DNA of 64,000 nucleotides from an uncultured Gammaproteobacteria bacterium (GTDB lineage Bacteria > Pseudomonadota > Gammaproteobacteria > Arenicellales > CAJQKF01): the NCBI GenBank assembly GCA_964350265.1, contig CAYGJZ010000002.1:41007-105006 (forward strand), in the 5' to 3' direction. The position numbers were made by a program, and so were the translations under genes. Shown here one piece after another: positions 4,165-42,375 of the stretch (the stretch's first letter is position 1; every line of letters begins with the position of its first letter). The notes under the pieces are model-generated. The model ran no database searches and had not been told where the DNA came from. It saw only the letters and a program-made list of their open reading frames with translations.

Positions 4165-4496
4165 ATTCGCCGTTCCTCCGTGGCGATAGTGTTCGCGTCG
4201 TCGCCGCACGGGCCTGTCCCGGCATCGTCGACACATCCCAGCGCACCAGACAGCAGGCAAACACCATGTCCCTACGCCTTCCAGTCCGCAGGCCACGCCA
4301 CGGCGGCCGAACCCGTGCCAGCCGGCAGGGCCTTCTTCATCCGCGTGAACTGTCGCGGCTGGATCGGCGGCTGCTGGCGGACATCGGCATAACGCCCATG
4401 GCCGCGACCTTCGGCCTGGCCGGTCCGGATGCGCGCGGAATCACCGCAACAACGCGCCCATCGGCGCATTATCGATCCGAATCGAGGAACAAGACA

Positions 4497-5339
4497 ATGA
4501 ACAACCACCAAGCCAACCTTGCCCAGGCCGTCACCACGCCGGACTACTCCGCCATCAAGGCGCGCCAGAACGCTGCCTGGGCCTCCGGCGACTATGCCGT
4601 GGTCGGCACCACGCTGCAGATCGTCGGGGAAACGCTGGCCGAGAGCATGGACCCGGTGCCAGGCTCCCGGGTGCTCGACGTGGCGGCCGGCAACGGCAAT
4701 GCCACGCTGGCCTTCGCCCGCCGCTGGCACCGGGTGACCTCCACCGACTACGTCGAGGCGTTGCTCGACAAGGGCAGGGCGCGGGCCGCCGCCGAGCAGC
4801 TCGACGTCGATTTCCGTGTCGCCGATGCCGAGGCACTGCCCTTCGACGACGGTGTCTTCGACGCGGTGGTGTCCACGTTCGGCGTGATGTTCGCCCCGCA
4901 CCAGGAGCAGGCCGCCGCCGAGATGCTGCGCGTATGTCGTTCCGGCGGCCAGCTCGGCATGGCCAACTGGACCCCGGACGGCTTCATCGGGCGGTTGTTC
5001 AAGCTCCTCGGCGGCTACCTGCCGCCGCCGGCCGGGCTGTCGTCTCCGGCACGCTGGGGCGACGGTCGCTGGCTCGACGAAACCTTCGGGCCCTCCGCCC
5101 GGGTAGTACAGTGCAGCCAGCGACAGTTCCACTTCCGCTACCGTTCGCCGGCCCATTTCATCGAAGTATTCCGCGGTCTCTACGGCCCGGTGCACAAGGC
5201 CTTCGCCGCCCTCGACGAGGACCGCGGCGCGGCGCTTGCGGCGGACATGCATGCCCTGATCGACAGCCTCAACATCGCCACCGACGGCAGCATGAACGTG
5301 CCCGGTGACTATGCCGAGGTCATTATCCTGAAGGCCTAG
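4497..5339 (+). CDS. Class I SAM-dependent methyltransferase
   Basis: Motif I is VLDVAAGNGNAT and the post-II block is FDAVVSTFGVMF. A GAGGAA Shine-Dalgarno lies 7 nt upstream of ATG 4497. The frame stays open upstream to an ATG at 4266 (see findings). Confidence 0.85.
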   Translation: MNNHQANLAQAVTTPDYSAIKARQNAAWASGDYAVVGTTLQIVGETLAESMDPVPGSRVLDVAAGNGNATLAFARRWHRVTSTDYVEALLDKGRARAAAEQLDVDFRVADAEALPFDDGVFDAVVSTFGVMFAPHQEQAAAEMLRVCRSGGQLGMANWTPDGFIGRLFKLLGGYLPPPAGLSSPARWGDGRWLDETFGPSARVVQCSQRQFHFRYRSPAHFIEVFRGLYGPVHKAFAALDEDRGAALAADMHALIDSLNIATDGSMNVPGDYAEVIILKA

Positions 5340-5403: not shown

Positions 5404-7083
5404 TTGCATGGCTTGCCTTCCGTCGTCGCCCCGGGGTCTACTCGGCGTCACGAAATCATCCGGGGAGTCAGGTTGGATCACGAGATATCCGCTGCGCGAA
5501 CAAAGGCGTGGCTCCACGACGGCGACGAGATTGCCCTGCTCGACGTGCGCGAGGCCGGGCAGTTCGGCGAAGGGCATCCCCTGTTCGCGGTGCCGTTGCC
5601 CTACAGTCGCCTGGAAGCCCGTATTGGTGCATTGGTGCCACGGCTTGATACCCGCATCGTGTTGCTGGACGACGCAGACGGGGTAGCCCGACGTGCTTCC
5701 GACTGCCTGGCCGGCGCCGGCTACAGCGACGTGTATACCGTTGCCGGTGGTGCGTCGGCCTGGGCCGATGCCGGGTATACCCTGTACCAGGGAGTGAACG
5801 TGCCCTCGAAAGCCCTCGGTGAACTGGTCGAGCATGCCTGGCGACCACCGACCGTGAATGCCGCCACCTTGTACCAGTGGCGAACGGAGGGAAGAGCGCA
5901 CCTGTTGTTCGATGCCCGACCCCCGGCGGAATACGCGAAGATGCGTATCCCCGGTGCGTTGTGCCTGCCGAACGGCGAGCTGGCGCATCGATTTCCGGCC
6001 GCGGTGTCTGATGCCGCGATTCCCGTGGTGGTGACCTGTGCCGGCCGTACCCGCTCGCTGGTCGGGGTGCTGGGTCTTCAGCTTGCCGGCATCACCTCGC
6101 CGATCCACGCGCTGGAGAACGGTACCCAGGGTTGGGTGCTTGCGGGTCATGCGCTGGAACGTGGCAACCAGGCAGCGTGTTATCCGTCGTTGAGTCCGTC
6201 GCAGGCGCGGCAAACCCGCGAGCGCGCTGACCGTGTGCTGGCCGCACAGGGCATCGACAGTGTTGATGCCAGGGATGTGCAGCGTTGGCGCGAGGAACCG
6301 GGTCGAACCACCTACCTGTTTGATCTGCGCTCGCCGGAGGAGATCGCCAACGATCCGGCACCGGCCTTCGTTCCCGCGCTGTCCGGGCAGTTGGTGCAGG
6401 CTGCCGACCAGTGGATCGGCGTGCGGCATGCCCGCCTGGTGCTGCTGGATGATCTCGGCCTGCGCGGCGCCATTGCCGCGTTCTGGCTCCGACAGCTTGG
6501 CTTCGAGGTCGCCGTGGTGCGCGTGGACGACACCGTCCGCGCGCTGGTCCCGCACCGAGCGGTTCCCGCGCCGGAGCGGATTGCCTGTATCGATGCGGCA
6601 GAAGCACTGGCTCGACATGCCCGCGGTACGGCCTTGCTGCTGGATGTTCGCGGTTCGGCAGCCTGTCGCGAGGCTCGGCTGGCCGGGGTGCCCTGGGGGG
6701 TGCGCCCGCGCCTGGATCGTCTGGCGCTCGAGCGGTCGCTTCCCGTGTACCTGGTGGGCGAGGGCGAGGTGGCGGCTCTGGCAGCGCGGGAGTGTCGACG
6801 ACTGGGGCACCCGGATGTGTCCTTGGTCGCCGGCGGAGTGGATGCCCTGGTCGATGCCGGGGCGACGCTGTCGCGGGACGGGAACGATCCAGGCGCCGAG
6901 GAATCCATCGATTTCCTCTGGTTCGTTCATGACCGGCACGATGGCAACCTGGCAGCATCCAGGCGATACCTGGCCTGGGAGCAGGGCCTGGTCGAACAAC
7001 TGGACGACGAGGAGCGGGCAGAGTTCCGCATCGCCGCTCGATCGCCGAAGAGCGCAGTCGGTCCACGGAAGGTTACGGATTGA
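5404..7083 (+). CDS. Multi-domain rhodanese-like sulfurtransferase (about four tandem rhodanese domains)
   Basis: Rhodanese-like modules repeat along the protein (LLDVREAGQFGEGH...; LFDARPPAEYAKMRIPGAL...). One active-site loop, CAGRTRS, is present. The protein is paralogous over its whole length to residues ~200-733 of the 21897-24098 product. An alternative start is TTG 5473, 5 nt after GGGGAG. Confidence 0.8.
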   Translation: MHGLPSVVAPGSTRRHEIIRGVRLDHEISAARTKAWLHDGDEIALLDVREAGQFGEGHPLFAVPLPYSRLEARIGALVPRLDTRIVLLDDADGVARRASDCLAGAGYSDVYTVAGGASAWADAGYTLYQGVNVPSKALGELVEHAWRPPTVNAATLYQWRTEGRAHLLFDARPPAEYAKMRIPGALCLPNGELAHRFPAAVSDAAIPVVVTCAGRTRSLVGVLGLQLAGITSPIHALENGTQGWVLAGHALERGNQAACYPSLSPSQARQTRERADRVLAAQGIDSVDARDVQRWREEPGRTTYLFDLRSPEEIANDPAPAFVPALSGQLVQAADQWIGVRHARLVLLDDLGLRGAIAAFWLRQLGFEVAVVRVDDTVRALVPHRAVPAPERIACIDAAEALARHARGTALLLDVRGSAACREARLAGVPWGVRPRLDRLALERSLPVYLVGEGEVAALAARECRRLGHPDVSLVAGGVDALVDAGATLSRDGNDPGAEESIDFLWFVHDRHDGNLAASRRYLAWEQGLVEQLDDEERAEFRIAARSPKSAVGPRKVTD

Positions 7084-7113: not shown

Positions 7114-7141
7114 AGATGTTATCATCTGGTCTTTAACATCT
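7114..7141. promoter_or_regulatory. Inverted repeat AGATGTTA-N12-TAACATCT upstream of the GST gene
   Basis: The 8-bp arms are perfect. It lies in an AT-rich island 26 nt upstream of ATG 7167. It shares the TAACAT half-site with the TAACATGTTA palindromes. Confidence 0.45.
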
Positions 7142-7166
7142 TACAAGATCAACCAGGATCCTCGCC

Positions 7167-7775
7167 ATGAAACTGCACCAGCACCCGATGTCCGGCAATT
7201 GCTACAAGGTACGCCTGATGGCCTCACTGCTGGGCGTCGACGTTGCGTTGGTGCCCGTGGACTTGATGAACGGAGAGCAGAAGACTCCTGCCTTTCGGGC
7301 CTTGAATCCCCTCGGGCAAGTACCGGTTCTGGAAGATGATGGTGTACTGGTGCGCGACTCCCAGGCCATTCTCGTCTACCTCGCGCGCCGCTACGGTGGG
7401 GACGCCTGGCTGCCTGAAGACGCCGCTGGGCTCGCCGAAGTCATGCAGTGGCTGTCGTTTTCCGCCAGGGAGATGCTGGAGGGGCCGGCCCTGGCCCGGG
7501 CCCTCGTCCTGTTCAAGCGCACGGACGATCCGGAACCGGTGGCCAAGCGCGCACGACGGGCGCTCGCGGTGCTCGACGACCGTCTGCAGCACCATCCGTG
7601 GCTGGCGCTCGACCGGCCAACGGTGGCCGACGTCGCCTGTTATCCCTATGCCGCGCTGGCTCACCAGGGCGACCTGGACATCGGCGAACTCGATGGCCTG
7701 CTGGGTTGGTTCGCGCGGGTGCAGGGGTTGTCCGGTTACATTGCGCAGAAAGGCATCTACGAAGTTCCACTCTAA
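7167..7775 (+). CDS. Glutathione S-transferase
   Basis: The N-terminal thioredoxin-like half reads NPLGQVPVLEDDGVLVRDSQAILVYL. A C-terminal helical GST domain follows. The product is 202 aa. Confidence 0.9.
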   Translation: MKLHQHPMSGNCYKVRLMASLLGVDVALVPVDLMNGEQKTPAFRALNPLGQVPVLEDDGVLVRDSQAILVYLARRYGGDAWLPEDAAGLAEVMQWLSFSAREMLEGPALARALVLFKRTDDPEPVAKRARRALAVLDDRLQHHPWLALDRPTVADVACYPYAALAHQGDLDIGELDGLLGWFARVQGLSGYIAQKGIYEVPL

Positions 7776-7808
7776 TAACATCTTATATAGATCATATTGA
7801 CATGTTAT
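7776..7808. promoter_or_regulatory. TAACATCTTA plus TGACATGTTAT operator-like pair upstream of the PaaK-like operon
   Basis: It starts immediately after the GST stop codon. TAACATCTTA (7776-7785) duplicates 7134-7143. GACATGTTAT (7799-7808) is a one-mismatch variant of the TAACATGTTA palindrome. Confidence 0.45.
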
Positions 7809-12259: not shown

Positions 12260-12269
12260 TAACATGTTA
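12260..12269. promoter_or_regulatory. Exact palindrome TAACATGTTA (copy 1), upstream of acuI
   Basis: Read directly from the sequence. It lies 134 nt upstream of the acuI start on the minus strand. Confidence 0.55.
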
Positions 12270-12540: not shown

Positions 12541-12550
12541 TAACATGTTA
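12541..12550. promoter_or_regulatory. Exact palindrome TAACATGTTA (copy 2), upstream of the cupin-ABC operon
   Basis: Read directly from the sequence. It lies 43 nt upstream of ATG 12593. Confidence 0.55.
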
Positions 12551-12592
12551 ACTACATTGACCATCATCGAAACACAACGGGAAACCGCCACC

Positions 12593-13075
12593 ATGAGCAA
12601 GCCAACTGAACAGCAGACCTGGGGCGACAGGCTGGACGACGCGATCCAGGCGGCGTCGAGCGCGCGTCGGGAAGCACGCAAGGTGATTCGCTCGGAAGAG
12701 TTGCAATGGGAAGAGGACAAGATGGCCAAGAGCGCCTTGCTGGTGAGCGAGATGACCGGATTCTCGCTGCGCTCTATCCACGCATTTCTCGCCGAGATGC
12801 CACCTGCGGCATCCACCGGGAAACATCGTCACACCAGCGAAGCGCTGATGTACGCGTTGTCTGGCAGCGCCTACACCATCATCGACGGAGAGCGGATCGA
12901 CTGGAAGGCGGGAGATGCCATTGCCATCCCGGTGATGGCCTGGCATCAGCACTTCAATGCCAGCGACACCGAGCCGTTTCGCTACCTTGCCGCGAGCAAC
13001 TACCCGATGACGGTAAATCTCGGCGTGGAACTGATCGAGCACGCTGAATCGCGCAGCGATCTCGACGACAACTGA
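12593..13075 (+). CDS. Monocupin, gentisate-1,2-dioxygenase-like metal site
   Basis: The cupin motifs are GKHRHTSEALMYALSG and IPVMAWHQHFN. I chose ATG 12593 as the start. The ORF-track start at 12545 lies inside the palindrome. Confidence 0.7.
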   Translation: MSKPTEQQTWGDRLDDAIQAASSARREARKVIRSEELQWEEDKMAKSALLVSEMTGFSLRSIHAFLAEMPPAASTGKHRHTSEALMYALSGSAYTIIDGERIDWKAGDAIAIPVMAWHQHFNASDTEPFRYLAASNYPMTVNLGVELIEHAESRSDLDDN

Positions 13076-18450: not shown

Positions 18451-18492
18451 TGACATTTAAGAAAATGTCATCCAATTATAATTAACATGTTA
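18451..18492. promoter_or_regulatory. TGACATTT-N4-AAATGTCA inverted repeat plus exact TAACATGTTA (copy 3) in the VOC/LLM divergent region
   Basis: The inverted repeat is at 18451-18470. The exact 10-mer is at 18483-18492, directly abutting the AGGAG Shine-Dalgarno of the LLM gene (ATG 18507). Confidence 0.55.
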
Positions 18493-20791: not shown

Positions 20792-21529
20792 CTAGAACCA
20801 GATCTCCTCCGCCGGCTTGTGTGCAAGGTTGATGTCAAGCAGCTCGGAACTGGAAAGCAACGCCTGGGAAACCATTTCGCGGGCGGCGCGAATCTGCTCG
20901 GCGGCAACGCCTTCGGCGACTTCTCCGTCCTGGCGCGCCAGCGCATCCACCAGCAGTCGGTGTTCGTGCTGCATTTGCGGCGTGCGGTCGCGTAGCGAAA
21001 GGCCGAAGTGGAACAGGCGCTCCATGTCCTCGAGCAGCTGACCGATCATGCGCGCGAGACGTTCGTTGCCGGAAGCCCGGGCAATGGTCACGTGGAACTC
21101 GTAGTTGGCTCGAAGGAAGACCGCGGTTCCCTGTTTGTCGTCGACGTTGTACTCGGTGCGGCAGATCTCGTCGAGGCGTCGCAGTCGCTCGGCATCGACG
21201 CCGTTCTGTGCCGCCAGGCGGGCCGCGGGCGGCTCCAGGAACAGGCGCAGCTGAAAGATGTTGTTGACGTCGCGGATGGTGATCGGCGCGATGACGTAAC
21301 CACGACGATGTACCGGTCGCACCAGGCCTTGCTGCGACAGTCGGGTCAGGGCGGCGCGAATCGGTGCCTTGCCAAGCTTGAGGCGTTCCGAGAGCTGTGA
21401 CTCGGTGACCTCGGAGCCCGGTTTCAGCAAGCAGTGGATGATTTCCTGCTTGATCTGGTCATAGGCGAGGTCGCCAAGCAGGGCGGGGGACTTTCGCTTG
21501 CTGGTCGTGGTTTTCTTCTGCGCCGCCAT
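20792..21529 (-). CDS. GntR-family regulator, FadR/FCD subfamily
   Basis: The N-terminal wHTH reads SQLSERLKLGKAPIRAALTRLSQQGLV. The C-terminal FCD-type helical domain reads FHVTIARASGNERL.... Confidence 0.9.
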   Translation of the reverse strand: MAAQKKTTTSKRKSPALLGDLAYDQIKQEIIHCLLKPGSEVTESQLSERLKLGKAPIRAALTRLSQQGLVRPVHRRGYVIAPITIRDVNNIFQLRLFLEPPAARLAAQNGVDAERLRRLDEICRTEYNVDDKQGTAVFLRANYEFHVTIARASGNERLARMIGQLLEDMERLFHFGLSLRDRTPQMQHEHRLLVDALARQDGEVAEGVAAEQIRAAREMVSQALLSSSELLDINLAHKPAEEIWF

Positions 21530-21737: not shown

Positions 21738-21770
21738 TAACATGTTATATATCATCCTTAAAAATGTTAA
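21738..21770. promoter_or_regulatory. Exact TAACATGTTA (copy 4) plus AATGTTAA half-site upstream of the cupin-rhodanese gene
   Basis: The 10-mer is at 21738-21747 and the extra half-site at 21763-21770. They lie about 150 nt upstream of ATG 21897. Confidence 0.55.
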
Positions 21771-21896: not shown

Positions 21897-24098
21897 ATGA
21901 CGAGTACATCTGAGTCCGTTGTCGAGCAACGTACCGCCGCGGTCGCCACCACCATGGCCCGCATCGGGGACCTGGTGCAGGAGAGCGGCATCAACCGCGG
22001 TACGCTGGAGGAGATCAAGCAGGTGCTGATCGATCTCGCCATGCAGACCGGCCTGTTTCCCAAGGCCCACTACCCGGTTCCTGCCACGGGCAAGGGATTC
22101 ATCTATCGCTTGTTCGACGATCTGGACGCCGGGCTGGCGCTGTACGCATCGGCAGGCGTCCCGGGCAAGTACCAGCCGCCACACAACCACACCACCTGGG
22201 CTGCCATCGCCGCGGTCTATGGCGACGAGCACAACGTGATGTACGAGCGCACCGACAACGGTGCCACCCCCGGCCACGGCAGCCTGCGCCGAAGTGGCGA
22301 GGTGATCGTCAGCCCGGGAACCGGGGTGGCACTGATGCCGGACGACTTTCACACCATCGAGGTCACCAGTGCCGAGCCTTCCCTGCACTTGCATGTCTAT
22401 GGTCGAAGCCTGGAGCGGCTCCCGGGGCGGATCTTCTTTCAAACTCCGGACAGTACAACCTATGCCACCTTTCCGGCCAATCCGAACATTCGTACCCCGG
22501 TGGTTACCCCGGCCGCACTTCGTTCTCTGATCCTGTCCGATGCCGAACTCGCCCTGCTCGACGTGCGCGAAGAACGTGCGTATTCCGAGGAGCACCTGCT
22601 GACCGCCACGTCGACCCCCTTGTCGACCCTGGAACTGCGCATTGCGGCTCTTGTGCCAGCCAGGAAAACCACGATCGTGTTGTGCGATGGCGGTGGCGAT
22701 CTGGCCAATCGGGCAGCCACTTTGCTGGCGCGCCAGGGCTACCGCAACCTGTCCGTGCTCGATGGTGGCGTCAACGGCTGGAAGCGCGCCGGCTACGCCG
22801 TCTACGCGGGCATGCACGTGCCCAGCAAGGCCTTTGGAGAGTTCGTCGAGGACAAGGAGAAGACGCCGTCCATCCAGGCCGAAGACCTGGCCGGGCAGCT
22901 CGCCGCGGGCGAGCACTGGACGGTGATCGATTGCCGGCCGCGGGAGGAATACGCACGTGGCACGTTGCCTGGCGCTATCAACTGCCCGGGTGTCGAAGTG
23001 CTGACCGGGGTGCTGGACGCCGTGTCCTCGTCGTCGACGCGGGTGGCCGTGCACTGCGCCGGACGTACCCGTGGCATCCTTGCCGCCCAGACTCTCCTCG
23101 ATGGTGGAATTCCGAATCCGGTGCACGTACTCGAGGATGGCACCATGGGCTGGCACCTGGCCGGACACGATCTCGAGGAGGGCCGAACAAAGATCGCTTC
23201 CTTTCCGTCCACCGGCGCGCGCCGGGACGGCGGAGCGGCCTCGGCGGCCATCGGCCGCCGCGGGCAGGTGCGTTACCTGGACGAGGCCTCGTTGCTGGCC
23301 ATGCAGGAGGAGGCGTCTCGGCATACGCTGTACCTGGTGGACGTGCGATCCTCGGAGGAGTATGTCACCGGGCATCGGAGAGGCGCGCTCTCCATCCCCG
23401 GCGGCCAGTTGCTGCAAGCCACCGAGTCCTACCTGGCAGTGCGCAACGCGCGCATCGTGCTGACCGACGACGACGGCATCCGCGCCACCATCACCGCCGC
23501 GTGGCTCAACCGCATGGGCTACCCGCACGTGTACGTACTCGGTGCGCCGCGCCATGCCGACTGGCTGGAGACGGGACCAGAGCCCAGGTCGGTGCTGGGT
23601 CTTGGCCACTACCGCGTTGCCTGGGTTCGCGCCGATGCACTGGCCGAGGCGTTGGCGGATGGCGCGGATGGCATCGAGGTGATCGATCTCGCCCCGGGAC
23701 CGCAACACCTTTCCGGACACATACCCGGCGCGCGCTTCGCCGCGCGTGACGGCCTCGCGGCGGTGCTCAATGCCATGCCCAGGCGTGGATTGACGGTGCT
23801 CACCTCCGAGGACGGCGTGCTGGCCTCCATGGTGGCCGCCGAAATCGACGCCACGGTGACAGGCGATGTCCAGGTGTTGCTGGGCGGAACACGGGCCTGG
23901 CAGGCCGCGGGCCATTCCCTTGCCAGCGGCGACGAAGGCGCGTTGTCGCCGATGAACGACGTCTACCAGAAACCCTATCACCGGGCAGGCGGTCGCGAGG
24001 ACGCCATGCAAGCCTACCTGGCATGGGAAAAAGGGCTGTTGCGCGCGATTCATGACGCCGGCGACGACGAACTGCTGCCGTTCCTGCGCGAAGACTGA
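21897..24098 (+). CDS. Cysteine-dioxygenase-like cupin fused to tandem rhodanese domains
   Basis: The N-terminal ~190 aa is a cupin with PPHNHTTW...DFHTIE...HLHVYG. The remainder is paralogous to the 5404-7083 protein, including the active-site loop CAGRTRG and the YLAWE tail. Confidence 0.85.
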   Translation: MTSTSESVVEQRTAAVATTMARIGDLVQESGINRGTLEEIKQVLIDLAMQTGLFPKAHYPVPATGKGFIYRLFDDLDAGLALYASAGVPGKYQPPHNHTTWAAIAAVYGDEHNVMYERTDNGATPGHGSLRRSGEVIVSPGTGVALMPDDFHTIEVTSAEPSLHLHVYGRSLERLPGRIFFQTPDSTTYATFPANPNIRTPVVTPAALRSLILSDAELALLDVREERAYSEEHLLTATSTPLSTLELRIAALVPARKTTIVLCDGGGDLANRAATLLARQGYRNLSVLDGGVNGWKRAGYAVYAGMHVPSKAFGEFVEDKEKTPSIQAEDLAGQLAAGEHWTVIDCRPREEYARGTLPGAINCPGVEVLTGVLDAVSSSSTRVAVHCAGRTRGILAAQTLLDGGIPNPVHVLEDGTMGWHLAGHDLEEGRTKIASFPSTGARRDGGAASAAIGRRGQVRYLDEASLLAMQEEASRHTLYLVDVRSSEEYVTGHRRGALSIPGGQLLQATESYLAVRNARIVLTDDDGIRATITAAWLNRMGYPHVYVLGAPRHADWLETGPEPRSVLGLGHYRVAWVRADALAEALADGADGIEVIDLAPGPQHLSGHIPGARFAARDGLAAVLNAMPRRGLTVLTSEDGVLASMVAAEIDATVTGDVQVLLGGTRAWQAAGHSLASGDEGALSPMNDVYQKPYHRAGGREDAMQAYLAWEKGLLRAIHDAGDDELLPFLRED

Positions 24099-26854: not shown

Positions 26855-28408
26855 ATGACAGCTACCGTTGCACGCATTCTTGCCGCCGCCACCACCGCGG
26901 TACTGGCTTCCACCGCACTCGCCAATGAACTCGTCGTCGGGGTCGCCACCGAGCCGACCTCGATGGATCCGCAGTACCAGGCACTGGGTTCCAACGAAGA
27001 GCTCTCCCTGCACCTGTTCGAGGCGCTCATCGAACGCGGCCCGGAGATGGAACTCAAGCCGGCGCTGGCGACCTCCTGGGCACCCACAGACGATCCGCTG
27101 GTCTGGGAGTTCAAGCTGCGTGACGACGTCACCTTCCACAACGGCGAGCCGTTCACCGCGCACGACGTGGTCTTCTCGCTGGAGCGTGCCCTGGACGTGC
27201 CCAATGCCCCCTCCACCTTCAAGCGACGCCTGGTCAAGGTGACCAAGTCCTGGGCGGTGGACGACCACACCCTGCACGTGCAGACCGAGACGCCGTATCC
27301 GCTGCTGCCGCGCTACCTGGCGGCGGTCTACATCGTCAGCAAGGGCATCGGCGACGGGACCGAGTCGACCACCTTCAACGACGGCACCAACACCCATGGC
27401 ACCGGCCGCTACAAGTTCACCGAGTTCGTGCCCGGCGACCACGCCACCTTCACCGCCAACGAGAACTACTACGGCGACAGGCCGCACTGGGACAAGGTCA
27501 CCTTCCGCTGGCTGGAAAGCGGTCCGTCGCGGGTTGCGGCGCTGCTCTCCGGCGATGTCGACGCCATTGCCACGGTGCCGACCACCGATGTCGACCGGCT
27601 GCGCGACAACCCGGACATCAATGTCAGCTGCGGCGTCACCAGTCGGCTGATCTACTGGTCGCTGGACGTGTCCAGCGAACAGGCCGCGCACATCACCGCG
27701 AAGGACGGCAGCGCCATCCCCAACCCGCTCGCCGACGTGCGCGTACGCAAGGCCTTCTCCATGGCCATGGATCGTTCGGCCATCGTCGACAACGTCATGG
27801 GTGGTCTTGCCGTGCCCACCGGCCAGATCGTGTTCGAGGCATTGGGTGGCTACAACCCGGACATCGCCGTGCCCGAGTTCGACGTCGCCGGGGCGAAGGC
27901 GCTGCTCGCCGAGGCCGGTTACCCGGATGGCTTCAAGCTCACCATTCATGCCACCAACGACCGCTACGTCAACGATGCCAAGCTGGCCCAGGCCGTGGCG
28001 CAGATGCTGACCCGCATCGGTGTCGACGTCACCGTGGAGACCATGCCGGTGGCGGTGTACTACGGCAAGGCACGCAAGCACGAGTTCACCATGGCCCAGA
28101 TCGGCTGGAGCACGGCATCGGGCGAGTCCTCGGCCATCCTGCACCCGGCCCTGGCATCCGGGCAGCGCAACAACTACGGTCGCTGGGAAAACGCCGAGTT
28201 CAACCAGCAACTGGAGGCGGCGTTGAGCACGGTGGATCTTGAGCAGTACGAAAAGTCCCTGCAGGCGGCCACGCGGGTCGCGGTGGAAGAAGACGTGGCC
28301 ATCATCCCCACCCACATCCAGGTGCTGTGCAGCGCCTCGCGCAAGGAACTGGCGGTGACGCCGCGCATCGACGAGCTGATGCTCGCCGAGTCGGTCCGTC
28401 GGCAGTAG
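26855..28408 (+). CDS. ABC substrate-binding protein, family 5 (DppA/OppA-like)
   Basis: A signal peptide is present (ILAAATTAVLASTALA). The product is a 517-aa family-5 binding protein and is followed by DppBCDF-like genes. Confidence 0.85.
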   Translation: MTATVARILAAATTAVLASTALANELVVGVATEPTSMDPQYQALGSNEELSLHLFEALIERGPEMELKPALATSWAPTDDPLVWEFKLRDDVTFHNGEPFTAHDVVFSLERALDVPNAPSTFKRRLVKVTKSWAVDDHTLHVQTETPYPLLPRYLAAVYIVSKGIGDGTESTTFNDGTNTHGTGRYKFTEFVPGDHATFTANENYYGDRPHWDKVTFRWLESGPSRVAALLSGDVDAIATVPTTDVDRLRDNPDINVSCGVTSRLIYWSLDVSSEQAAHITAKDGSAIPNPLADVRVRKAFSMAMDRSAIVDNVMGGLAVPTGQIVFEALGGYNPDIAVPEFDVAGAKALLAEAGYPDGFKLTIHATNDRYVNDAKLAQAVAQMLTRIGVDVTVETMPVAVYYGKARKHEFTMAQIGWSTASGESSAILHPALASGQRNNYGRWENAEFNQQLEAALSTVDLEQYEKSLQAATRVAVEEDVAIIPTHIQVLCSASRKELAVTPRIDELMLAESVRRQ

Positions 28409-28449
28409 GACCCCGATCAACGGCGGACCATCTCCCGTGGTAACACGCG

Positions 28450-28473
28450 CGGCCGGCGCCATGGCGCCGGCCG
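28450..28473 (+). other. 24-bp perfect GC palindrome (hairpin) after the binding-protein gene
   Basis: The sequence is CGGCCGGCGCCATGGCGCCGGCCG. It starts 42 nt after the stop, and a CTTTTCC tract lies about 20 nt downstream. It could be an intercistronic attenuator or stabiliser. Confidence 0.45.
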
Positions 28474-28512
28474 ACGCCCACTGTTGCGCACTTTTCCCGG
28501 CGGCGTAGCGCG

Positions 28513-29496
28513 ATGAGCCTGTACATCATTCACCGGATGGCACAAAGCGTGTTGGTGCTGCTGGTCACCATCGCCTTGATGTTCATCGGCATCTACGTCA
28601 TCGGCAACCCGGTGGACGTGCTGGTTTCCCAGGAAGCCGACCAGGCCGAGTTCGAGCGCATGGTGGCCATGCTCGGTCTCGACCGGCCCTTGTGGGAACA
28701 GTTCCTGGCCTACCTGTCCAACCTCGTCACCGGCAACCTCGGTCGATCCTTCGCCTTCAGCGAGCCGGCGCTGCAACTGGTGGTGCAACGACTGCCGGCG
28801 ACCCTGGAACTGGTCTTCGTCGCCATGTCGCTGGCGCTGGTCATCGGCATTCCCCTTGGCCTGTATACCGGCCTGCATCCGAATCGTCGCAGCGCGCGGC
28901 TGATCATGGGCACCTCCATCGTCGGGGTGAGCATTCCCAACTTCTGGCAGGGCCTGGTGCTGATTTTCATCATGGCGGTGAGCCTGCAGGCATTGCCGGC
29001 CGGTGGACGTGGCGACACCGCCACCGTGCTGGGCATCACCTCCAGCCTGTGGACACTGGACGGCTGGAGCCACGTGCTGCTGCCGGCGGTGAACCTGGCG
29101 CTGTTCCAGTGCACGCTGGTGATCAGGCTGGTGCGCGCCAGCGTCCGCGAGATCAGCGCACTGGACTTCGTCAAGTTCGCCCGCGCCAAGGGGCTTCGCG
29201 CCGGTCGCATCGTCTGGGTGCATATTTTCAAGAACACCCTGGTAGTGCTGATCACCGTGGTCGGCATGCAGCTCGGTTCGCTGATTGCCTACTCGGTGGT
29301 CACCGAGACCATCTTCGCCTGGCCGGGCATCGGCAAGCTGATCATCGACAGCGTCTACATCCTCGACCGGCCGGTGATCCTGGCCTACATGCTGGTGATG
29401 GTCCTGATGTTCATCACCATCAACCTGGTGGTGGATATCCTGTACTCGTTCATCGATCCGCGCATCCGGCTCGGCGGGGGTGAATCGTGGCGCTAG
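28513..29496 (+). CDS. ABC permease, DppB-like
   Basis: The product is hydrophobic and 327 aa long. It carries an EAA-type loop (ARAKGLRAGRIVWVHIFKN). Confidence 0.9.
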   Translation: MSLYIIHRMAQSVLVLLVTIALMFIGIYVIGNPVDVLVSQEADQAEFERMVAMLGLDRPLWEQFLAYLSNLVTGNLGRSFAFSEPALQLVVQRLPATLELVFVAMSLALVIGIPLGLYTGLHPNRRSARLIMGTSIVGVSIPNFWQGLVLIFIMAVSLQALPAGGRGDTATVLGITSSLWTLDGWSHVLLPAVNLALFQCTLVIRLVRASVREISALDFVKFARAKGLRAGRIVWVHIFKNTLVVLITVVGMQLGSLIAYSVVTETIFAWPGIGKLIIDSVYILDRPVILAYMLVMVLMFITINLVVDILYSFIDPRIRLGGGESWR

Positions 29497-30788
29497 GGGA
29501 GGGCGGCGTGCCGGCGGTTGCCGCCAACGGCGCCATTGCCGCCGAGGACGAGTCGCCGGTGCGGCGCACCGTGCGCCAGTTCCGCGAGAACCGCGTGGCG
29601 GTGGCTTCGCTGGTCATCCTGGTGCTGATCGTGGTGCTGTCGGTGCTGGCACCGTGGATCGCCCCACAGGACCCCTACGACCTCGGCGAGATCGACATCG
29701 CCGACAGCCGGCTGCCGCCGGGTACGGCGAAGATGTCGCCGCCAGCGGAGCTCGGGTTGTATGCGACCATCGCCGCGGACGGCTCGGTCAGCACCCGGCG
29801 GGTGGATCGCGCCGACTACGAATCCCTCGACCAGTTGCGCGTCGAGGTCGCCGCGCAGGCCGAGGGCGGCGGTTATCGCCTGGCCCTGGTGCCGACGGCG
29901 GATGGCCCGCTGGATCCGTTGCGCGGCGTCCAGGTCAAGGAACTGCCCGGCGGTGCGACGCTGTCGGCTGGGGAGAAGGACCCGTTCCGCAACCTGTGGC
30001 GCGTTCCGGGCAGTGCCGCCGACGCGCTGGTGCTTACGCTTCCCGCAGCCACCGCCAGGGACGAGGTCACCTTCCGCATCGAGGTCACCGGCGAACGGAC
30101 CACCGCCTTGCAGACCTTCTGGCTGGGCACCGACGACCAGGGGCGCGACATGCTCAGCGCCATCCTCTACGGCCTGCGCATCAGCATCGCCATCGCCCTT
30201 GGCAGCGTGCTCATCGCGCTGACCATCGGCACGTTGGTCGGGTTGTGCGCTGCCTACTACGGTGGCCGCGTGGATGCCGTGATCATGCGCGTGGTGGACC
30301 TGCAGTTGAGCTTTCCCACCATCCTGGTGGCGTTGATCCTGCTCGCCGCCATGGGCCAGGGCCTGGTCAACGTGCTGGTGGCCCTGGTCGTCGTGCAGTG
30401 GGCCCTGTACGCGCGCACCGCACGCGGCGTGGCGCTGGCGGAACGGGAGCGGGAATACGTCGAGGCCGCCCGCGGGCTCGGCCTGCGCACGCCGCGCATC
30501 CTGCTCGTGCACATCCTGCCCAACTGCCTGCCGTCGCTGATCGTCATTGCCACGCTGGAGGTCGGCAATGCCATCTCGCTGGAAGCAACGCTGAGCTTTC
30601 TTGGCCTCGGCCTGCCGGTCACCGAGCCCTCCCTGGGCCTGCTGGTCTCGGCCGGCTTCGAGTACCTGCTGTCCGGCTATCCCTGGATCAGCATCCTGCC
30701 CGGGGTGGCCTTGCTGGTGACCGTGGTCTGCATCAACCTGGTCGGCGACGAGTTGCGCGACATCATGAATCCACGCCTGCAGAAATGA
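29487..30788 (+). CDS. ABC permease, DppC-like, with ~130-aa periplasmic insertion
   Basis: The conserved blocks APWIAPQDPY and FWLGTDDQGRD are separated by about 130 non-hydrophobic residues rather than the usual ~15. The start is GTG and overlaps the dppB-like stop. Confidence 0.85.
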   Translation: MALGEGGVPAVAANGAIAAEDESPVRRTVRQFRENRVAVASLVILVLIVVLSVLAPWIAPQDPYDLGEIDIADSRLPPGTAKMSPPAELGLYATIAADGSVSTRRVDRADYESLDQLRVEVAAQAEGGGYRLALVPTADGPLDPLRGVQVKELPGGATLSAGEKDPFRNLWRVPGSAADALVLTLPAATARDEVTFRIEVTGERTTALQTFWLGTDDQGRDMLSAILYGLRISIAIALGSVLIALTIGTLVGLCAAYYGGRVDAVIMRVVDLQLSFPTILVALILLAAMGQGLVNVLVALVVVQWALYARTARGVALAEREREYVEAARGLGLRTPRILLVHILPNCLPSLIVIATLEVGNAISLEATLSFLGLGLPVTEPSLGLLVSAGFEYLLSGYPWISILPGVALLVTVVCINLVGDELRDIMNPRLQK

Positions 30789-31780
30789 ACCAGGCCGAGC
30801 ACGGACATCCCACGGCACTGCTCGCGGTGGAGGGGCTGCGTACCAGCTTCTTCACCCGTGGCGGCGAACTGCGCGCGGTGGACGATGTCAGCTTCCACGT
30901 TGATCGTGGCGAGATCGTCGGCCTGGTCGGTGAATCCGGTTCGGGCAAGACGGTCACCGGGCAGTCCATCCTTGGCCTGGTGGACGAGCCGGGTCGCATT
31001 ACCGGTGGCCGCGTACTGTTCCATGGCGAAGACCTCGTTCACGCCAGTGCCGAGCGCCTGCGTGAACTGCGCGGACATCGCATTGCCATGATCTTCCAGG
31101 ACCCGGCGACCACGCTGAACCCGGTGCTGCGGGTCGGTACGCAGATGGTCGAGGCCATTCGCACCCACCAGCGCGTTTCCGCCGCCGAGGCGCGGCAGCG
31201 TGCCCGCGATGCACTGGGCATGATGGGCATTCCGTCGCCGGAGGAACGACTGGACGGCTACCCCCACCAGTTCTCCGGCGGCATGCGCCAGCGCGTGGCC
31301 ATCGCCATCGCGGTGCTGCACGAGCCGGACCTGGTGATCGCCGATGAGCCCACCACCGCGCTGGACGTCACCATCCAGGCGCAGATCCTGCACGAGGTGC
31401 AGCGACTGCGGCGGGATCGTGGCATGGCGGTGATCTGGATCAGCCACGACCTGTCGGTGGTTGCCGGCCTGGTGGACCGGGTCTGCGTCATGTACGCGGG
31501 CAGCATCATCGAGCAGGGCAGTGTCGACGATGTGCTTGACCGGCCGCTGCATCCCTACAGCCGCGGGCTGATCGATTCGGTGCCCAGTCGCAACCGGCCG
31601 GGGCAGCCGCTGGCGCAGATTCCCGGCGCCATGCCGTCGCTGCTCGATCTCGCCCCGGGCTGCCGCTTCCAGCCCCGCTGTCCACGCGCCGACGACTCCT
31701 GTACGCCGCTGCCGGCACTGCGCGACCATGGCCGGCGACAGGTGCGCTGCGTGCACCCGCTGGCGGAGGGGGAACGTTGA
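30785..31780 (+). CDS. ABC ATP-binding protein, DppD-like
   Basis: Walker A is GESGSGKT and the signature is [12 protein letters not shown]. The C-terminal oligopeptide-type extension reads [10 protein letters not shown]...CRFQPRCP. An ATGA overlap joins it to the upstream gene. Confidence 0.9.
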
Positions 31781-32775
31781 CCACGCCGATCATGGAACTG
31801 TCCGCCGTGTCGCGCCGCTTCAGCCGCGGTCTCGACCCGGTGGCGCGCATGCTCAACCGGCTCGGCGCGCGCTACCGCGAGCAGGTGGTGCACGCGGTGG
31901 AGCAGGTGGATCTCGCGGTGATGCCCGGGGAAGTGATGGGCCTGGTCGGCGAATCCGGCTGTGGCAAGTCCACCCTTGGTCGCGTGGTTGCCGGCCTGCT
32001 CAAGCCCAGCGCGGGCGAGATCCGCTACCGCGGCGAGTCCTTGTCATCGTTGTCCGCGGTTGACGCCCATCGCTACCGCATGGACGTGCAGGTCATCTTC
32101 CAGGATCCGTTCACGTCGCTGAATCCGCGTCGCCGGGTGCGCGACATCATCGGCGAGGCGCCCCGCATCCACGGCCAGTGGCCGGCGGCGGAGGTCGACC
32201 AGCGGCTGGTCGACGTGATGCAGCGGGTCGGTCTCGACCCGAAGGTGCGCGGACGCTACCCGCACCAGTTCTCCGGCGGCCAGCGCCAGCGTATCGGCAT
32301 TGCCCGCGCCATCGCCGTGAACCCCGCCTTCCTGGTCTGCGACGAGGCGGTGGCGGCGCTGGACGTTTCCATCCAGGCGCAGATCCTCAACCTGTTCATG
32401 CAACTGCGCGAGGATCTCGGTCTGACCTACCTGTTCATCAGCCACGATCTCGGCGTCATCCGGCACCTGTCGGACCGCGTCACGGTGATGTATCTCGGCC
32501 GGGTGGTGGAAAGCGGGCCGACCGCCGAACTGCTGGGCGAGCCCAACCACCCCTATACCCGGGCACTGCTCGACGAGGTGCCGCGCATCGAGGACCGCCA
32601 GCGCAGCTTTCCCGCGGTGCGCGGCGAGATTCCCTCGCCGCTGAACCCGCCTGGTGGCTGCGCCTACCACCCGCGCTGCCCGCATGCCATGGCCCGTTGC
32701 CGGGTGGAGACGCCGCTGCCGCGGGAGATTGCCCCGGGGCGGCGCAGCGCCTGCCACCTGAACGACGTCGCCTGA
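31777..32775 (+). CDS. ABC ATP-binding protein, DppF-like
   Basis: Walker A is GESGCGKST and the signature is [12 protein letters not shown]. The C-terminal blocks are HPYTRALL and CAYHPRCP. Confidence 0.9.
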
Positions 32776-39413: not shown

Positions 39414-40406
39414 TTACTCGATCTCGACGATGGCCTCGATGCGCTCCATGCCGCCGACCTTGTCGGCGTAGCTCTGCCAGAAGGAGGCCATGGCTTCCTG
39501 CCAGGCGGCGATGTCAGGCTGCACGACTTCCGCGCCGGCTTCCACCGTCTTCGCCAGGGAGGCGTCCTGTTCCGCCGAGGCCAGCTCGTTGAAGTAGGGG
39601 ATGGCCTCGTCCGCGGCTGCCTGCATCACTGCCTGCTGTTCGGCGGAGAGTCCTTCCCAGAAAGACTTGCTGAGGTACATCGCGCCCAGCGACCAGATGT
39701 GGTTGGTCTCGGTGAGGTAGGGCACCACCTCGAACAGCTTCAGCGCATGGTAGCCGGACTTGGTCATGTCCATGTAGTCGACCACGCCGGTCTGCAGCGC
39801 ATTGTAGGCCTCGGTGATCGGCACCGGGGTCGGGTTGGCACCCAGGGAACTCCACAGGTCGATGTGCAGCGGGCTTTGCAGCACGCGCATCTTCTTGCCG
39901 TCGACATCGGCCGGGACGCGGATCGGCTCCTTGCTGATCACGTGGCGTGAGCCGTAGACGATGAAGCCGAGCACCTTGAAGCCCTGGGCATCGTACAGCG
40001 CCTTGAACTCGTCACCGATGGGGCCGGTCATGGCCTTGTTGATGTGCTCCAGGTCGCGGAACATGAAGGGCATGTCGAACAGCGCGCCTTCCGGCACCCA
40101 GGTGGTCAGGTTGGCCAGCGTCGACAGGGCGCCCTGGATGGAGCCCAGGCGAATGCCCTCGGTGGTTTCCTTCTCGCCGCCGAGGGCGCCGTCGGTGACC
40201 ACCTTGACATCGAACTGCCCGGGCATCTTCTCGTTGACGATGTCGCTGAACTTGTACCAGATCTTCGACTGCGGCTTGTCCGGTCCGTAGATCACGGACA
40301 CGGTCAGCGTCTTCGGTGCCTGCGCCGCGGCGTGACCCGCCGCGGCCAGCCCGAGGGCGGCCACCGTGGCCAGTGCCACGGGCTTGAACCAGTTGGATTG
40401 CTTCAT
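39414..40406 (-). CDS. TRAP transporter substrate-binding protein (DctP family)
   Basis: A signal peptide is present (VALATVAALGLAAAGHAAA). The DctP-like blocks are GALGGEKE, FDMPFMFRD and LQTGVVD. Confidence 0.9.
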   Translation of the reverse strand: MKQSNWFKPVALATVAALGLAAAGHAAAQAPKTLTVSVIYGPDKPQSKIWYKFSDIVNEKMPGQFDVKVVTDGALGGEKETTEGIRLGSIQGALSTLANLTTWVPEGALFDMPFMFRDLEHINKAMTGPIGDEFKALYDAQGFKVLGFIVYGSRHVISKEPIRVPADVDGKKMRVLQSPLHIDLWSSLGANPTPVPITEAYNALQTGVVDYMDMTKSGYHALKLFEVVPYLTETNHIWSLGAMYLSKSFWEGLSAEQQAVMQAAADEAIPYFNELASAEQDASLAKTVEAGAEVVQPDIAAWQEAMASFWQSYADKVGGMERIEAIVEIE

Positions 40407-40473
40407 TTTCACGGTCAGTTCCTCTCTTGTCTTTTGATGGGTGTACAACGAAATCGAACTCGAATGAAACCGG

Positions 40474-42375
40474 TCAGCGGCCACCGATCAGCCAGCCGAG
40501 TCCCAGGGAAATAGCCGGTACGTAGGTGATGACCAGCAGGGCGGCAAACAAGGCCGCCAGCAACGGCAGCATGGCGCGAAACACGTCGTGCACCGGGGTG
40601 CGGGAAATCGACCCGGTGATGAATGCCAGCATGCCCACCGGCGGTGTCAGTCCGCCGAGCATCAGGTTGACCACCACCACGATGCCGAAGTGCACCGGGT
40701 CGATGCCGAGGCTGGTGACCAGCGGCATCAGCAGCGGGGTCAGGATCAGGATGGCGGCGCCGATGTCCAGGAACATGCCGAACAGCAGCATCAACATGTT
40801 GACCAGCAGCAGCACCACGTAGGGATTCTCCGACAGGGTGGCCACGCTGACGGTGAGCAACTGCGGGATCTGTTCGGTCACCAGCACGAAGGCGAAGGGG
40901 GCCGCGGCACCGATCAACAGCCCGACCATGGCGGCTTCCACCGCCGCGCCGCGCAGGGTCTGCCACAGGTCGCGGACACCGTAGCTGCGGTAGACGAACA
41001 TGCCCAGCACCCAGCCGTAGACCACTGCCAGCACGCCGGCCTCGGTGGGCGTGACCACGCCGAAACGGATGCCGCCGAGGATCAGCACGGCCAGCCCGAG
41101 CACCGGCAGCGCCTGGCCGAAGGCACGCCAGCGCTCGCCGCTGCCGGCCTTCTCGTTGGCGGTGCCAAAGCCCTTGATGCGGGCAATGATGTACACGCAG
41201 ATCATCAGCGAGAAGATCATGAACAGTCCCGGCACCACCCCGGCCAGCCACAGGCTGCCCACCGACAGGTTGGCGGCGGCGGCAAGGATGAGCAGGGCGA
41301 TGGACGGCGGGATCACGTTCGGCACCGTGGCCGAAGCCGCGGTCACCGCGCAGGAGAAGGCAGGCGAGTAGCCGTGGCGGACCATCTGCGGCACCAGCAG
41401 CTTGGTGCCCAGCGCGGCCTCGGAGTAGCTCGAGCCGGAGATGCCCGCGTACAGGCCGCTGGAAACCACGTTGACCTGGGCGAAGCCGCCGCGCATGTGT
41501 CCCACCAGCTTGAAGGCGAAGTCCATCAGGCGCCGGGTCAGGCCGCCGGCATTCATCAGCGCGCCGGCAGTGATGAAGAAGGGGATGGCCAGCAACAGGA
41601 ACTTGGTGGCGCCGTTGACCATGTTCTGTACCACCGCCGCTGGTGGCATCAGGCCGCCGGCCAGGTTGGCGACGAAGGCGGCGAAGATCATGGCGAAGGC
41701 CACCGGCGAGCCGAGCGCCATGGCGACCACGAAGGACAGCGCCATGACCAGGCCCGGGTCGCTGCCGGCAATGGACAGCGTGCCGGTGACGTTGACCACG
41801 TAGTACAGGGCCGCGCCGACGATGATGGCCAGCGGGCCGCGCCAGGGTTCACGACCTTCGTCGACGCCGCGCAGGGCGAGGTAGACCAGGCCGAGGACAC
41901 AGGCCACCGGGATCAGCGAGAACTTCACCCAGGTGGGCAGGCCGAGGGCGTAGTTGACGCCGCCGACCATCTCGATGATGGTCATGCCGCCGAACAGCAG
42001 CATGATGGTGGTGTAGGCGATGATGACGTCGCTGGCGAGTTCGGCCACGGTGCGGGCGCGCGCTGGCAGCCGGTCCACGAACAGGCCGATGGACAGGTGC
42101 ATGCGGGTGCGGTGGGCGAGGGGAACGGCGAGGAAGATCACCGCCACGAACAGCCACTGTGCCGCATCCGCGGCCCAGGTGATGGAATTGTTGAAGCCGT
42201 AGCGACCAATGACGTTGGCGAAGATGATGGCGATCAGCGCGATCAATGCCAGCGTGACCGCGGCACCGATGACATGGTCGAGCAGGCCAAGAAAGCGCTG
42301 CGCAAGGCCGCGCACGCCGTCGGCGCGGGGCGCCTCGGGGGATACGCCAAGACGGGGTTCAGCGACCGACGGCAT
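40474..42375 (-). CDS. TRAP transporter fused small/large permease (DctQ-DctM)
   Basis: The N-terminal ~170 aa is a DctQ-like 4-TM module fused to a DctM-like 12-TM module. The start is ATG 42375, 7 nt after GAGGAGGA. It overlaps the stop of the GGT-like gene. Confidence 0.9.
   Translation of the reverse strand: MPSVAEPRLGVSPEAPRADGVRGLAQRFLGLLDHVIGAAVTLALIALIAIIFANVIGRYGFNNSITWAADAAQWLFVAVIFLAVPLAHRTRMHLSIGLFVDRLPARARTVAELASDVIIAYTTIMLLFGGMTIIEMVGGVNYALGLPTWVKFSLIPVACVLGLVYLALRGVDEGREPWRGPLAIIVGAALYYVVNVTGTLSIAGSDPGLVMALSFVVAMALGSPVAFAMIFAAFVANLAGGLMPPAAVVQNMVNGATKFLLLAIPFFITAGALMNAGGLTRRLMDFAFKLVGHMRGGFAQVNVVSSGLYAGISGSSYSEAALGTKLLVPQMVRHGYSPAFSCAVTAASATVPNVIPPSIALLILAAAANLSVGSLWLAGVVPGLFMIFSLMICVYIIARIKGFGTANEKAGSGERWRAFGQALPVLGLAVLILGGIRFGVVTPTEAGVLAVVYGWVLGMFVYRSYGVRDLWQTLRGAAVEAAMVGLLIGAAAPFAFVLVTEQIPQLLTVSVATLSENPYVVLLLVNMLMLLFGMFLDIGAAILILTPLLMPLVTSLGIDPVHFGIVVVVNLMLGGLTPPVGMLAFITGSISRTPVHDVFRAMLPLLAALFAALLVITYVPAISLGLGWLIGGR

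Follow-up and report, generated by a model that had tools for sequence, protein, structure and literature searches.

The window analysed here, a stretch of 64,000 nucleotides from an uncultured Gammaproteobacteria bacterium (assembly GCA_964350265.1, contig CAYGJZ010000002.1), carries at positions 21897-24098 of its forward strand a gene whose 733-amino-acid (aa) product joins a cupin-type thiol dioxygenase to an array of four rhodanese modules. We are highly confident that a conserved gene pair, for a thiol dioxygenase and a sulfurtransferase, has genuinely been fused in this gene, since the separate dioxygenase and four-rhodanese genes lie next to each other in Pseudomonas and Variovorax. 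A fuller explanation, in which a mercapto-acid dioxygenase is combined with sulfane transfer by the catalytic cysteine C387 of the array, is held to be somewhat better than an even bet. Solved relatives of both halves, the clustering of the two genes and other dioxygenase-rhodanese fusions are known; what appears to be new is the fusion of a cupin thiol dioxygenase to a rhodanese, and literature searches for a cupin-type thiol dioxygenase of the cysteine dioxygenase (CDO) kind fused to a rhodanese found no describing paper.

Integrity and architecture of the fusion gene

Codon-position GC content identifies 21897-24098 (+) as the coding frame, with a value of 0.80 at third positions (GC3) versus 0.50 at second positions (GC2). 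Gene calls on three independent assemblies give the identical 733-aa product. At least 120 homologues are full-length and align with it at 47-53% identity over 98-99% of the query; an alignment of 120 of these was used to read conservation. The initial annotation had described a cupin with three histidines, about four rhodanese modules, a single catalytic loop and a YLAWE tail. This architecture is borne out by translation, Pfam and fold comparison, and the quoted motifs HNH (22182-22190), HLHVY (22386-22400) and CAGRTRG (23055-23075) are present as described. Domain assignment with hidden Markov models, which had been proposed as a check, returned rhodanese four times from Pfam; the cupin was assigned through matches in the PDB instead. 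The parts of the gene are as follows.

21897-24098, + strand: fusion gene for the thiol dioxygenase/four-rhodanese protein, 733 aa, stop codon included (open reading frame (ORF), GC3, homologues, AlphaFold2 (AF2) model)
21897-22469, + strand: N-terminal thiol-dioxygenase cupin, residues 1-191, with a pair of helices ahead of the beta-barrel (8VNI at E 4e-40, MAFFT, Foldseek)
22470-22508, + strand: junction, residues 192-204 (F-P-A-N-P-N-I...), in place of the C-terminal lid of mercaptosuccinate dioxygenase (MSDO) and leading directly into module 1 (120-homologue alignment)
22509-22796, + strand: rhodanese module 1, residues ~205-300, predicted inactive, with Asp264 (best Pfam stretch 206-297; D264 in 120/120)
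22860-23180, + strand: rhodanese module 2, residues ~322-428, predicted sole catalytic module (Pfam, conservation, 1YT8 alignment)
23055-23075, + strand: active-site loop C387-A-G-R-T-R-G of module 2 (translation; CAGRTR in 120/120)
23268-23552, + strand: rhodanese module 3, residues ~458-552, predicted inactive, with invariant Asp524 (Pfam, conservation in 120/120, AF2)
23619-23921, + strand: rhodanese module 4, residues ~575-675, predicted inactive, with invariant Ser637 (Pfam, conservation, AF2)
23958-24095, + strand: tail DVYQKPYHRAGGREDAMQAYLAWEKGLL..., pattern P-Y...M..YL.WE..L with YLAWEKGL within, two predicted helices at 700-712 and 714-720 (translation, conservation, AF2)

The cupin half and its likely substrate

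Pfam gave no family for the cupin alone even at E<=10, CDO_I (PF05995) included; its assignment is therefore based on PDB sequence and fold comparison. Among solved structures, residues 8-192 matched MSDO best (8VNI, E 4e-40), followed by 3-mercaptopropionate dioxygenases (3MDO) and a putative CDO of Ralstonia at E 1e-5 to 1e-4. The cupin is 41% identical to MSDO 8VNI in a MAFFT alignment and superimposes on it in Foldseek with a TMt of 0.89 and a root-mean-square deviation (rmsd) of 2.0, while the fold scores are 0.75-0.78 for 3MDO structures and 0.65-0.74 for CDO structures; identity to these enzymes falls to ~21% and 14-16%, respectively.

The roles of individual residues were taken from the structure paper on MSDO, in which His93, His95 and His149 are the Fe ligands, His161, His163 and Tyr165 form a second-sphere H-x-H-x-Y motif, and Arg175 binds the Fe-chelating C1 carboxylate of the substrate (bioRxiv 10.64898/2026.05.19.726356). 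The equivalent positions of the fusion are listed below.

22107-22109, + strand: R71, at the position of MSDO Leu68, for which no role is reported, two positions along the strand from MSDO Arg66 (R in 119/120)
22182-22190, + strand: H96-N-H98, putative Fe ligands equivalent to MSDO His93/His95 (translation; 120/120 conserved)
22350-22352, + strand: H152, putative third Fe ligand, equivalent to MSDO His149 (120/120 conserved)
22386-22400, + strand: H164-L-H166-V-Y168, putative second-sphere H-x-H-x-Y motif, equivalent to MSDO His161/His163/Tyr165 (translation; 120/120 conserved)
22428-22430, + strand: R178, equivalent to MSDO Arg175, the ligand of the carboxylate that chelates Fe (120/120 conserved)

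The initial annotation had counted HLHVYG as part of the metal site; judged by the MSDO structure, this motif belongs to the second sphere and is not an Fe ligand. Its description of the cupin as cysteine-dioxygenase-like holds for the superfamily fold, the 3-His site and the His-Tyr pair but is too loose: the closest relative is MSDO at 41% identity, and CDO reaches only 14-16%. The fusion shares with CDO and 3MDO the superfamily, the fold, the three-His Fe site and the His-Tyr pair, and with 3MDO also the Arg for the Fe-chelating carboxylate; it differs in lacking the Cys-Tyr crosslink and in having His for Ser in the Ser-His-Tyr motif. The signature of CDO proper consists of the Cys93-Tyr157 crosslink, the Ser153-His155-Tyr157 triad and Arg60 at the position of MSDO Arg66. 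At these places the fusion has A102 (the counterpart of MSDO Ala99 at the crosslink-Cys position, Ala in 119/120 homologues), H164 and I69, and together with the low identity and the missing CDO_I match these residues led to the rejection of CDO proper. By sequence and fold, the cupin is thus assigned to the MSDO lineage of thiol dioxygenases.

MSDO has been described from Variovorax paradoxus B4 (PDB 8VNI/9NYV/9NYW) and Advenella (MIM_c37420). It has the same cupin fold and 3-His Fe site, the H-x-H-x-Y motif with His in place of the Ser of CDO and MDO, the same Ala at the crosslink-Cys position, the Arg175 equivalent and a genetic tie to a four-rhodanese protein. Genuine MSDO orthologues, however, are standalone proteins of ~196 aa with a free C-terminal lid, whereas the lid segment of the fusion is joined to rhodanese module 1. 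A second difference concerns the substrate pocket. In MSDO, Gln64, Arg66 and Asn82 hold the distal C4 carboxylate of mercaptosuccinate, and the loss of Arg66 greatly diminishes activity, as cited in the same paper (bioRxiv 10.64898/2026.05.19.726356). In the fusion these residues are replaced by G67, I69 (V, I or L across the family) and S85, with HMMER and MAFFT giving the same register, and a shifted arginine, R71, is present in all but one homologue. The substrate is therefore probably not mercaptosuccinate itself; most likely, as far as the alignment can indicate, it is another mercapto-carboxylate.

The rhodanese array

Pfam recognises four rhodanese stretches in the 733-aa protein (E 8e-49). 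Residues 200-733 matched PDB 1YT8, the protein PA2603 of P. aeruginosa, with a phmmer E of 2.8e-106 and 41% identity, colinear through the tail (residues 9-519 of the query part), and the AF2 model superimposes on 1YT8 in Foldseek with a TM score of 0.95 and an rmsd of 1.8 A over 522 columns. Both proteins share four tandem rhodanese folds over ~510 residues, the CAGRTR loop of the second module, Asp at the catalytic position of the first and third modules and the YLxWE tail, and PA2603 is likewise partnered with a thiol dioxygenase of the CDO family. It differs in being a separate polypeptide and in its partner, the 3MDO PA2602, which is 21% identical to the fusion cupin and not MSDO-like.

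Catalytic positions were located by counting from the conserved G-[YI] that follows each loop. Module 2 carries C387, and modules 1, 3 and 4 are predicted from their sequences to be catalytically dead; C263, which stands beside D264 in module 1, is not conserved among the homologues. The CAGRTR loop is common to the fusion, 1YT8, the rhodanese partner of MSDO in Variovorax and a paralogue in the window. The tail has counterparts in YLDWEFGL of 1YT8 and YLAWETGL of the Variovorax partner, and its helices are predicted with block pLDDT values of 94-96 over residues 701-730. In NCBIfam, the modules of the array score best against the rhodanese domain of a MoeB-type protein, with 142 bits versus a cutoff of 449.

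Two further positions attracted attention. C363 (22983-22985), 24 residues before C387 in module 2, is invariant in 120/120 homologues. In 1YT8 its place is taken by Val, and in the window paralogue the Cys stands one position away; a function as a resolving or relay thiol is conceivable. At residues 636-637 of module 4 (23802-23807), 1YT8 apparently has Cys (LTCGSS), while the fusion clade has the invariant Ser637 (LTSxDG), so that the partner protein of Pseudomonas may possess two active modules, as opposed to a single one in the fusion. A published sulfurtransferase assay was found for no member of the PA2603/1YT8 type, and the name thiosulfate sulfurtransferase is an annotation. Basic residues in the rhodanese loop favour thiosulfate-type substrates, and both sulfinates and sulfite accept sulfane sulfur.

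The junction

The spacing between Y189 and L218 is exactly 29 residues, free of insertions and deletions, in 120/120 homologues. The active-site lid of MSDO is formed by its C-terminal loop (residues 188-194), which becomes ordered through substrate-bound Arg66 and Arg175 (bioRxiv 10.64898/2026.05.19.726356). An AF2 model of the whole fusion, computed with 60 homologues, has a mean pLDDT of 92 and a pTM of 0.91. The fixed junction length and the confidence of the model indicate that the array would be held rigidly at the mouth of the dioxygenase.

A conserved gene pair with recurrent fusion

The msdo cluster of Variovorax runs LysR, msdo, a gene for a 548-aa rhodanese protein, TctC and a Cys/Met-PLP (pyridoxal phosphate) enzyme, and the rhodanese protein is colinear with residues 200-715 of the fusion (37% identity, E 1e-90). 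The 1YT8 protein, 527 aa long, occurs widely in Pseudomonas and Azotobacter. In P. aeruginosa, an overlap of 4 nucleotides (ATGA) links its gene to one whose 201-aa product is the crystallised 3MDO (3USS/4TLF, E 8.5e-134); the pair in Pseudomonas is adjoined by genes for Bac_luciferase and NMT1, in keeping with organosulfur scavenging. The clustering of dioxygenase and rhodanese genes is on record, the partner having been left without an assigned function (PMC5373536, PMC12947264). The structural papers on MSDO and 3MDO that were consulted make no mention of the rhodanese partner gene, no paper was found on 1YT8, which was solved in 2005, and a search of the literature on PA2602 revealed no citable link to sulfur starvation.

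A scan of species-representative genomes, one per species, yielded at least 573 loci in Alphaproteobacteria (many of them Stellaceae), Burkholderiales, Gammaproteobacteria and SAR324, the closest match being 61% identical. Of these loci, 80 were kept, with ~58 complete fusions and 9 standalone cupins, and seven of the nine standalone cupin genes are directly followed by a gene for a 531-534-aa CAGRTR/YLxWE protein. An exhaustive search with the cupin, clustered at 50%, gave 377 representatives at E<=1e-10. Two active-site subtypes can be told apart, one with QARYL...N as in MSDO and one with x-x-[IVL]-Y-R...S as in the window protein, and each of them occurs both fused and unfused. A rough neighbour-joining tree requires at least eight changes between the fused and the standalone state, and by this tree fusion and fission have evidently recurred.

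The dioxygenase and the four-rhodanese protein almost certainly work together. The initial annotation had gone further and suggested that thiol oxidation is coupled to sulfur transfer; this has strong comparative support in the adjacent or translationally coupled genes, the seven split loci and the recurrent fusion, but not in the published tst deletion of P. protegens, in which extracellular 3-mercaptopropionate (3-MPA) was not significantly changed.

Members of the cupin family are also fused to an N-terminal PLP domain of the class I/II aminotransferase fold (a C-S lyase fold), to a Polyketide_cyc2/SRPBCC domain and to a C-terminal M28 peptidase (among P0296, P0389, P0281 and P0376). The PLP-cupin fusion echoes the Cys/Met-PLP gene of the msdo clusters of Variovorax and Advenella, which hints that the thiol substrates may derive from the cleavage of cysteine S-conjugates.

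Proposed mechanism

The following course of the reaction is proposed. With Fe(II) and O2, the cupin would bind a small mercapto-carboxylate through its thiolate and, via R178, a neighbouring carboxylate, and would oxidise it to the sulfinate, which may release sulfite, substrate permitting. The MSDO lid segment would extend at fixed length into the rigid array of the PA2603/1YT8 type, where a persulfide on C387, within an Arg-rich CAGRTR loop suited to sulfur oxyanions, would donate its sulfane sulfur to the S-oxyanion product of the dioxygenase, thereby converting sulfite to thiosulfate or sulfinate to thiosulfonate. Organosulfur scavenging or detoxification would be the likely setting. The data establish what both halves are, that they are intact, that their genes are coupled again and again and that the junction has a fixed length; which thiol is used, which way the sulfur moves and whether anything is channelled are inferences, and we place this specific product-trapping mechanism a little short of an even chance.

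Several points weigh against it. No activity has been reported for any fused protein or four-rhodanese partner, there is no evident source of the C387 persulfide, and the tst deletion described above had no significant effect on 3-MPA. The product of 3MDO, although this enzyme has the same partner, is not reported to release sulfite spontaneously; a sulfite-trapping role is therefore not general, but a transfer from sulfinate to thiosulfonate could be. The proposed substrate hangs on an alignment register (R66 versus R71) that a structure could revise. Finally, a survey of ~960 neighbouring ORFs from the 80 loci, which were clustered, revealed no universally conserved third partner, and the neighbourhoods are variable. 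The commonest neighbours are ABC ATPases (23), zinc-dependent alcohol dehydrogenases (16), GNAT proteins (12), TauD (12), glutathione S-transferases (GST; 8) and old yellow enzymes (8), a set that is suggestive of organosulfur scavenging without being diagnostic.

The array may instead act before the dioxygenase. It could supply or prepare the substrate, for example by removing the sulfane sulfur of a persulfidated mercapto-acid. The C387 persulfide could also be oxidised by the Fe centre itself, which would make the cupin a persulfide dioxygenase with a protein-bound substrate; or the array, being attached to the lid, could control entry to the active site. The fixed length at which the array is joined to the lid segment would fit such a role, as would the three catalytically dead modules out of four, which suggest binding or scaffolding, and the lack of a clear change of 3-MPA turnover in the tst deletion, which is compatible with a function other than on the product. 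There is also a precedent in CstB, the true substrate of which is a protein-bound persulfide on a mobile loop (PMC12934615). However, MSDO and 3MDO, when isolated, act efficiently on free small thiols with no partner present, the invariant carboxylate-binding R178 speaks for a small carboxylate as substrate and against a protein cysteine, and the Arg-rich CAGRTR loop fits oxyanion chemistry. An array that acts first is thus considered unlikely, yet a serious candidate.

It could also be proposed that the protein is strictly a fused MSDO, which converts mercaptosuccinate to sulfinosuccinate and on to succinate and sulfite as in Variovorax and Advenella, with the rhodanese part detoxifying the sulfite. 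MSDO is the closest characterised relative, and some fused proteins (P0374, P0392) do carry the full MSDO signature. In the fused clade of the window, however, the residues for the distal carboxylate are replaced by G67, I/V/L69 and S85, and the loss of Arg66 strongly lowers the activity of MSDO; moreover, identity to MSDO is only 41% and the window lacks the TctC and Cys/Met-PLP genes of the msdo clusters. This makes a strict mercaptosuccinate dioxygenase rather improbable.

For the Variovorax partner, a role in a cofactor pathway has been suggested, as summarised in PMC5373536. Applied to the fusion, the rhodanese part would mobilise sulfur for the molybdenum cofactor (Moco) of a sulfite-oxidising molybdoenzyme, and the fusion would be a sign of co-expression and not of coupled catalysis. 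The MoeB-type NCBIfam match would agree with this, but it lies far below its cutoff (142 versus 449 bits) and such matches reflect the generic rhodanese fold. No Moco or sulfite-oxidase genes recur near the 80 loci, and co-expression alone can hardly explain an indel-free junction, a pTM of 0.91 and repeated fusion and fission, so that a cofactor role appears very unlikely.

Practically no credence is left for an assembly or frameshift artefact uniting two neighbouring genes, a concern of the initial annotation in case the fusion were unseen in related genomes: split versions with overlapping stop and start codons do exist in other genomes, and a one-base error could mimic a fusion, but the artefact was rejected in view of the three independent assemblies with the identical product, the at least 120 full-length homologues, the at least 573 loci, the ~58 complete fused ORFs among the 80 kept from species-representative genomes and a junction conserved in sequence and length.

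Comparison with CstB-type fusions

A related idea is realised in CstB of S. aureus and the PRF proteins, in which a non-haem Fe(II) dioxygenase is joined to a dead rhodanese-like and an active rhodanese module. In CstB, a persulfide dioxygenase is linked through a pseudo-rhodanese to an active rhodanese, and thiosulfate is formed with no release of sulfite (PMC12934615). It offers the functional precedent for S-oxygenation tied to sulfane transfer. The layout of a dead module followed by an active one in the fusion may be seen as analogous. In contrast to the fusion, CstB and PRF proteins have a dioxygenase of the metallo-beta-lactamase (ETHE1) fold, a persulfide substrate and two rhodanese-type modules instead of four; the dioxygenase halves are not homologous, and the metallo-beta-lactamase-rhodanese structure 3TP9 matches the fusion through its rhodanese part alone.

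Related proteins in the window

Two proteins elsewhere in the window had been regarded as relatives of the fusion.

5404-7083, + strand: cupin-less paralogue, a standalone four-rhodanese protein with CAGRTRS and the tail YLAWEQGL (sequence comparison)
56583-57227, - strand: lone 3-His cupin lacking H-x-H-x-Y, not part of the system (sequence comparison, operon context)

The product of 5404-7083 was described as colinear with the rhodanese part, with CAGRTRS and the same tail but no cupin, and this is confirmed: it aligns with residues 217-720 of the fusion at 36% identity (E 5e-71). It is closer to the rhodanese partner of MSDO in Variovorax (43% identity, E 2e-121) than to the fusion, and from its sequence it is judged to be an orphan copy of the dioxygenase partner. 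The gene lies between genes for a SAM-dependent methyltransferase (4482-5339) and a GST (7167-7775) on the same strand, with no dioxygenase gene adjoining, and a divergent gene for an HxlR-family regulator (3378-4124) is found nearby.

For the lone cupin, the initial annotation had pointed to the right locus, but its version of the gene (56583-57137) begins at an inner ATG and the ORF spans 56583-57227. The cupin retains the H-x-H...H pattern and is 26% identical to the fusion cupin (E 7e-9). To call it a rhodanese-less cupin paralogue is overstated because of this low identity and the absence of the H-x-H-x-Y motif; as it also heads an unrelated operon on the minus strand (cupin, short-chain dehydrogenase/reductase, ThuA, binding proteins, FecCD and an ABC ATPase), its origin as a split-off copy of the fusion module was rejected.

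A third, unrelated cupin (12545-13075, +) belongs to Pfam Cupin_2, shows weak gentisate-dioxygenase-like matches and heads an ABC importer operon. The ATG listed at 12545 overlaps a palindrome described below, and the true start is therefore probably the inner ATG at 12593, which fits a 160-aa gene call.

Upstream region and neighbourhood

Two features lie upstream of the fusion gene.

20792-21529, - strand: divergent gene for a GntR/FCD-family regulator (Pfam GntR and FCD)
21738-21747, palindrome, no strand: TAACATGTTA in the promoter region from which the GntR and fusion genes diverge, 159 nucleotides upstream of the fusion ATG

The site noted upstream of the fusion gene is indeed present. 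With one mismatch allowed, the 10-bp sequence TAACATGTTA occurs seven times in the window versus 0.14 expected (four exact copies and three with one mismatch). All copies are intergenic (7134-7143, 7776-7785, 7798-7807, 12260-12269, 12541-12550, 18483-18492 and 21738-21747) and precede the GST gene next to the paralogue, a PaaK-like ligase gene, the operon of Cupin_2 and the ABC importer, the gene for a luciferase-like monooxygenase and, finally, the fusion gene. The sequence looks like the operator of a local regulon, for which the GntR/FCD protein is a candidate regulator, as it is for the fusion gene itself. It is absent upstream of the homologues at 80/80 foreign loci and would therefore be a local, species-specific operator rather than part of the system. 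A scan for promoters and terminators around the fusion gene gave nothing above shuffle background.

In the window, the neighbours of the fusion gene on the upstream side encode a luciferase-like monooxygenase, a flavin reductase, amidohydrolases and an ABC importer, and those on the downstream side a carbamoylase-family amidase and a peptide-type ABC importer. Among these neighbours, the hydantoinase/carbamoylase-family amidase alone passes its NCBIfam cutoff, which gives no clue to the substrate. The window also encodes a gamma-glutamyltranspeptidase (42359-44212, -), a TRAP transporter (39414-42435, -), a peptide-/glutathione-type ABC importer (26855-32775, +) and a TauD-family dioxygenase (60059-60952, -). 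Together with the GST and the amidases, these genes give the region a character of thiol, peptide and organosulfur scavenging.

Implications

CDO, 3MDO and MSDO have been studied intensively as isolated enzymes, and the only knockout of the partner was set aside after one non-significant readout. The widespread natural fusion with its rigid, indel-free junction is strong evidence for joint action, and it provides a single-polypeptide model for the role of the four-rhodanese partner. A bolder and tentative generalisation, which we consider doubtful at present, is that the cupin thiol dioxygenases (3MDO, MSDO and the fused clade) normally form a fixed two-site machine with the four-rhodanese protein, passing their sulfinate or sulfite product to the Cys387 persulfide, from which it would depart as thiosulfonate or thiosulfate, with no free sulfite. 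If such a machine exists, the enzymology of the isolated dioxygenases would cover half of the physiological reaction. If the product is channelled to thiosulfate or thiosulfonate, the fusion would be a second, independently evolved and cupin-based counterpart to the CstB-type fusions. The altered distal pocket, in turn, would point to another mercapto-acid, which hundreds of Proteobacteria from soil and freshwater would use as a substrate.

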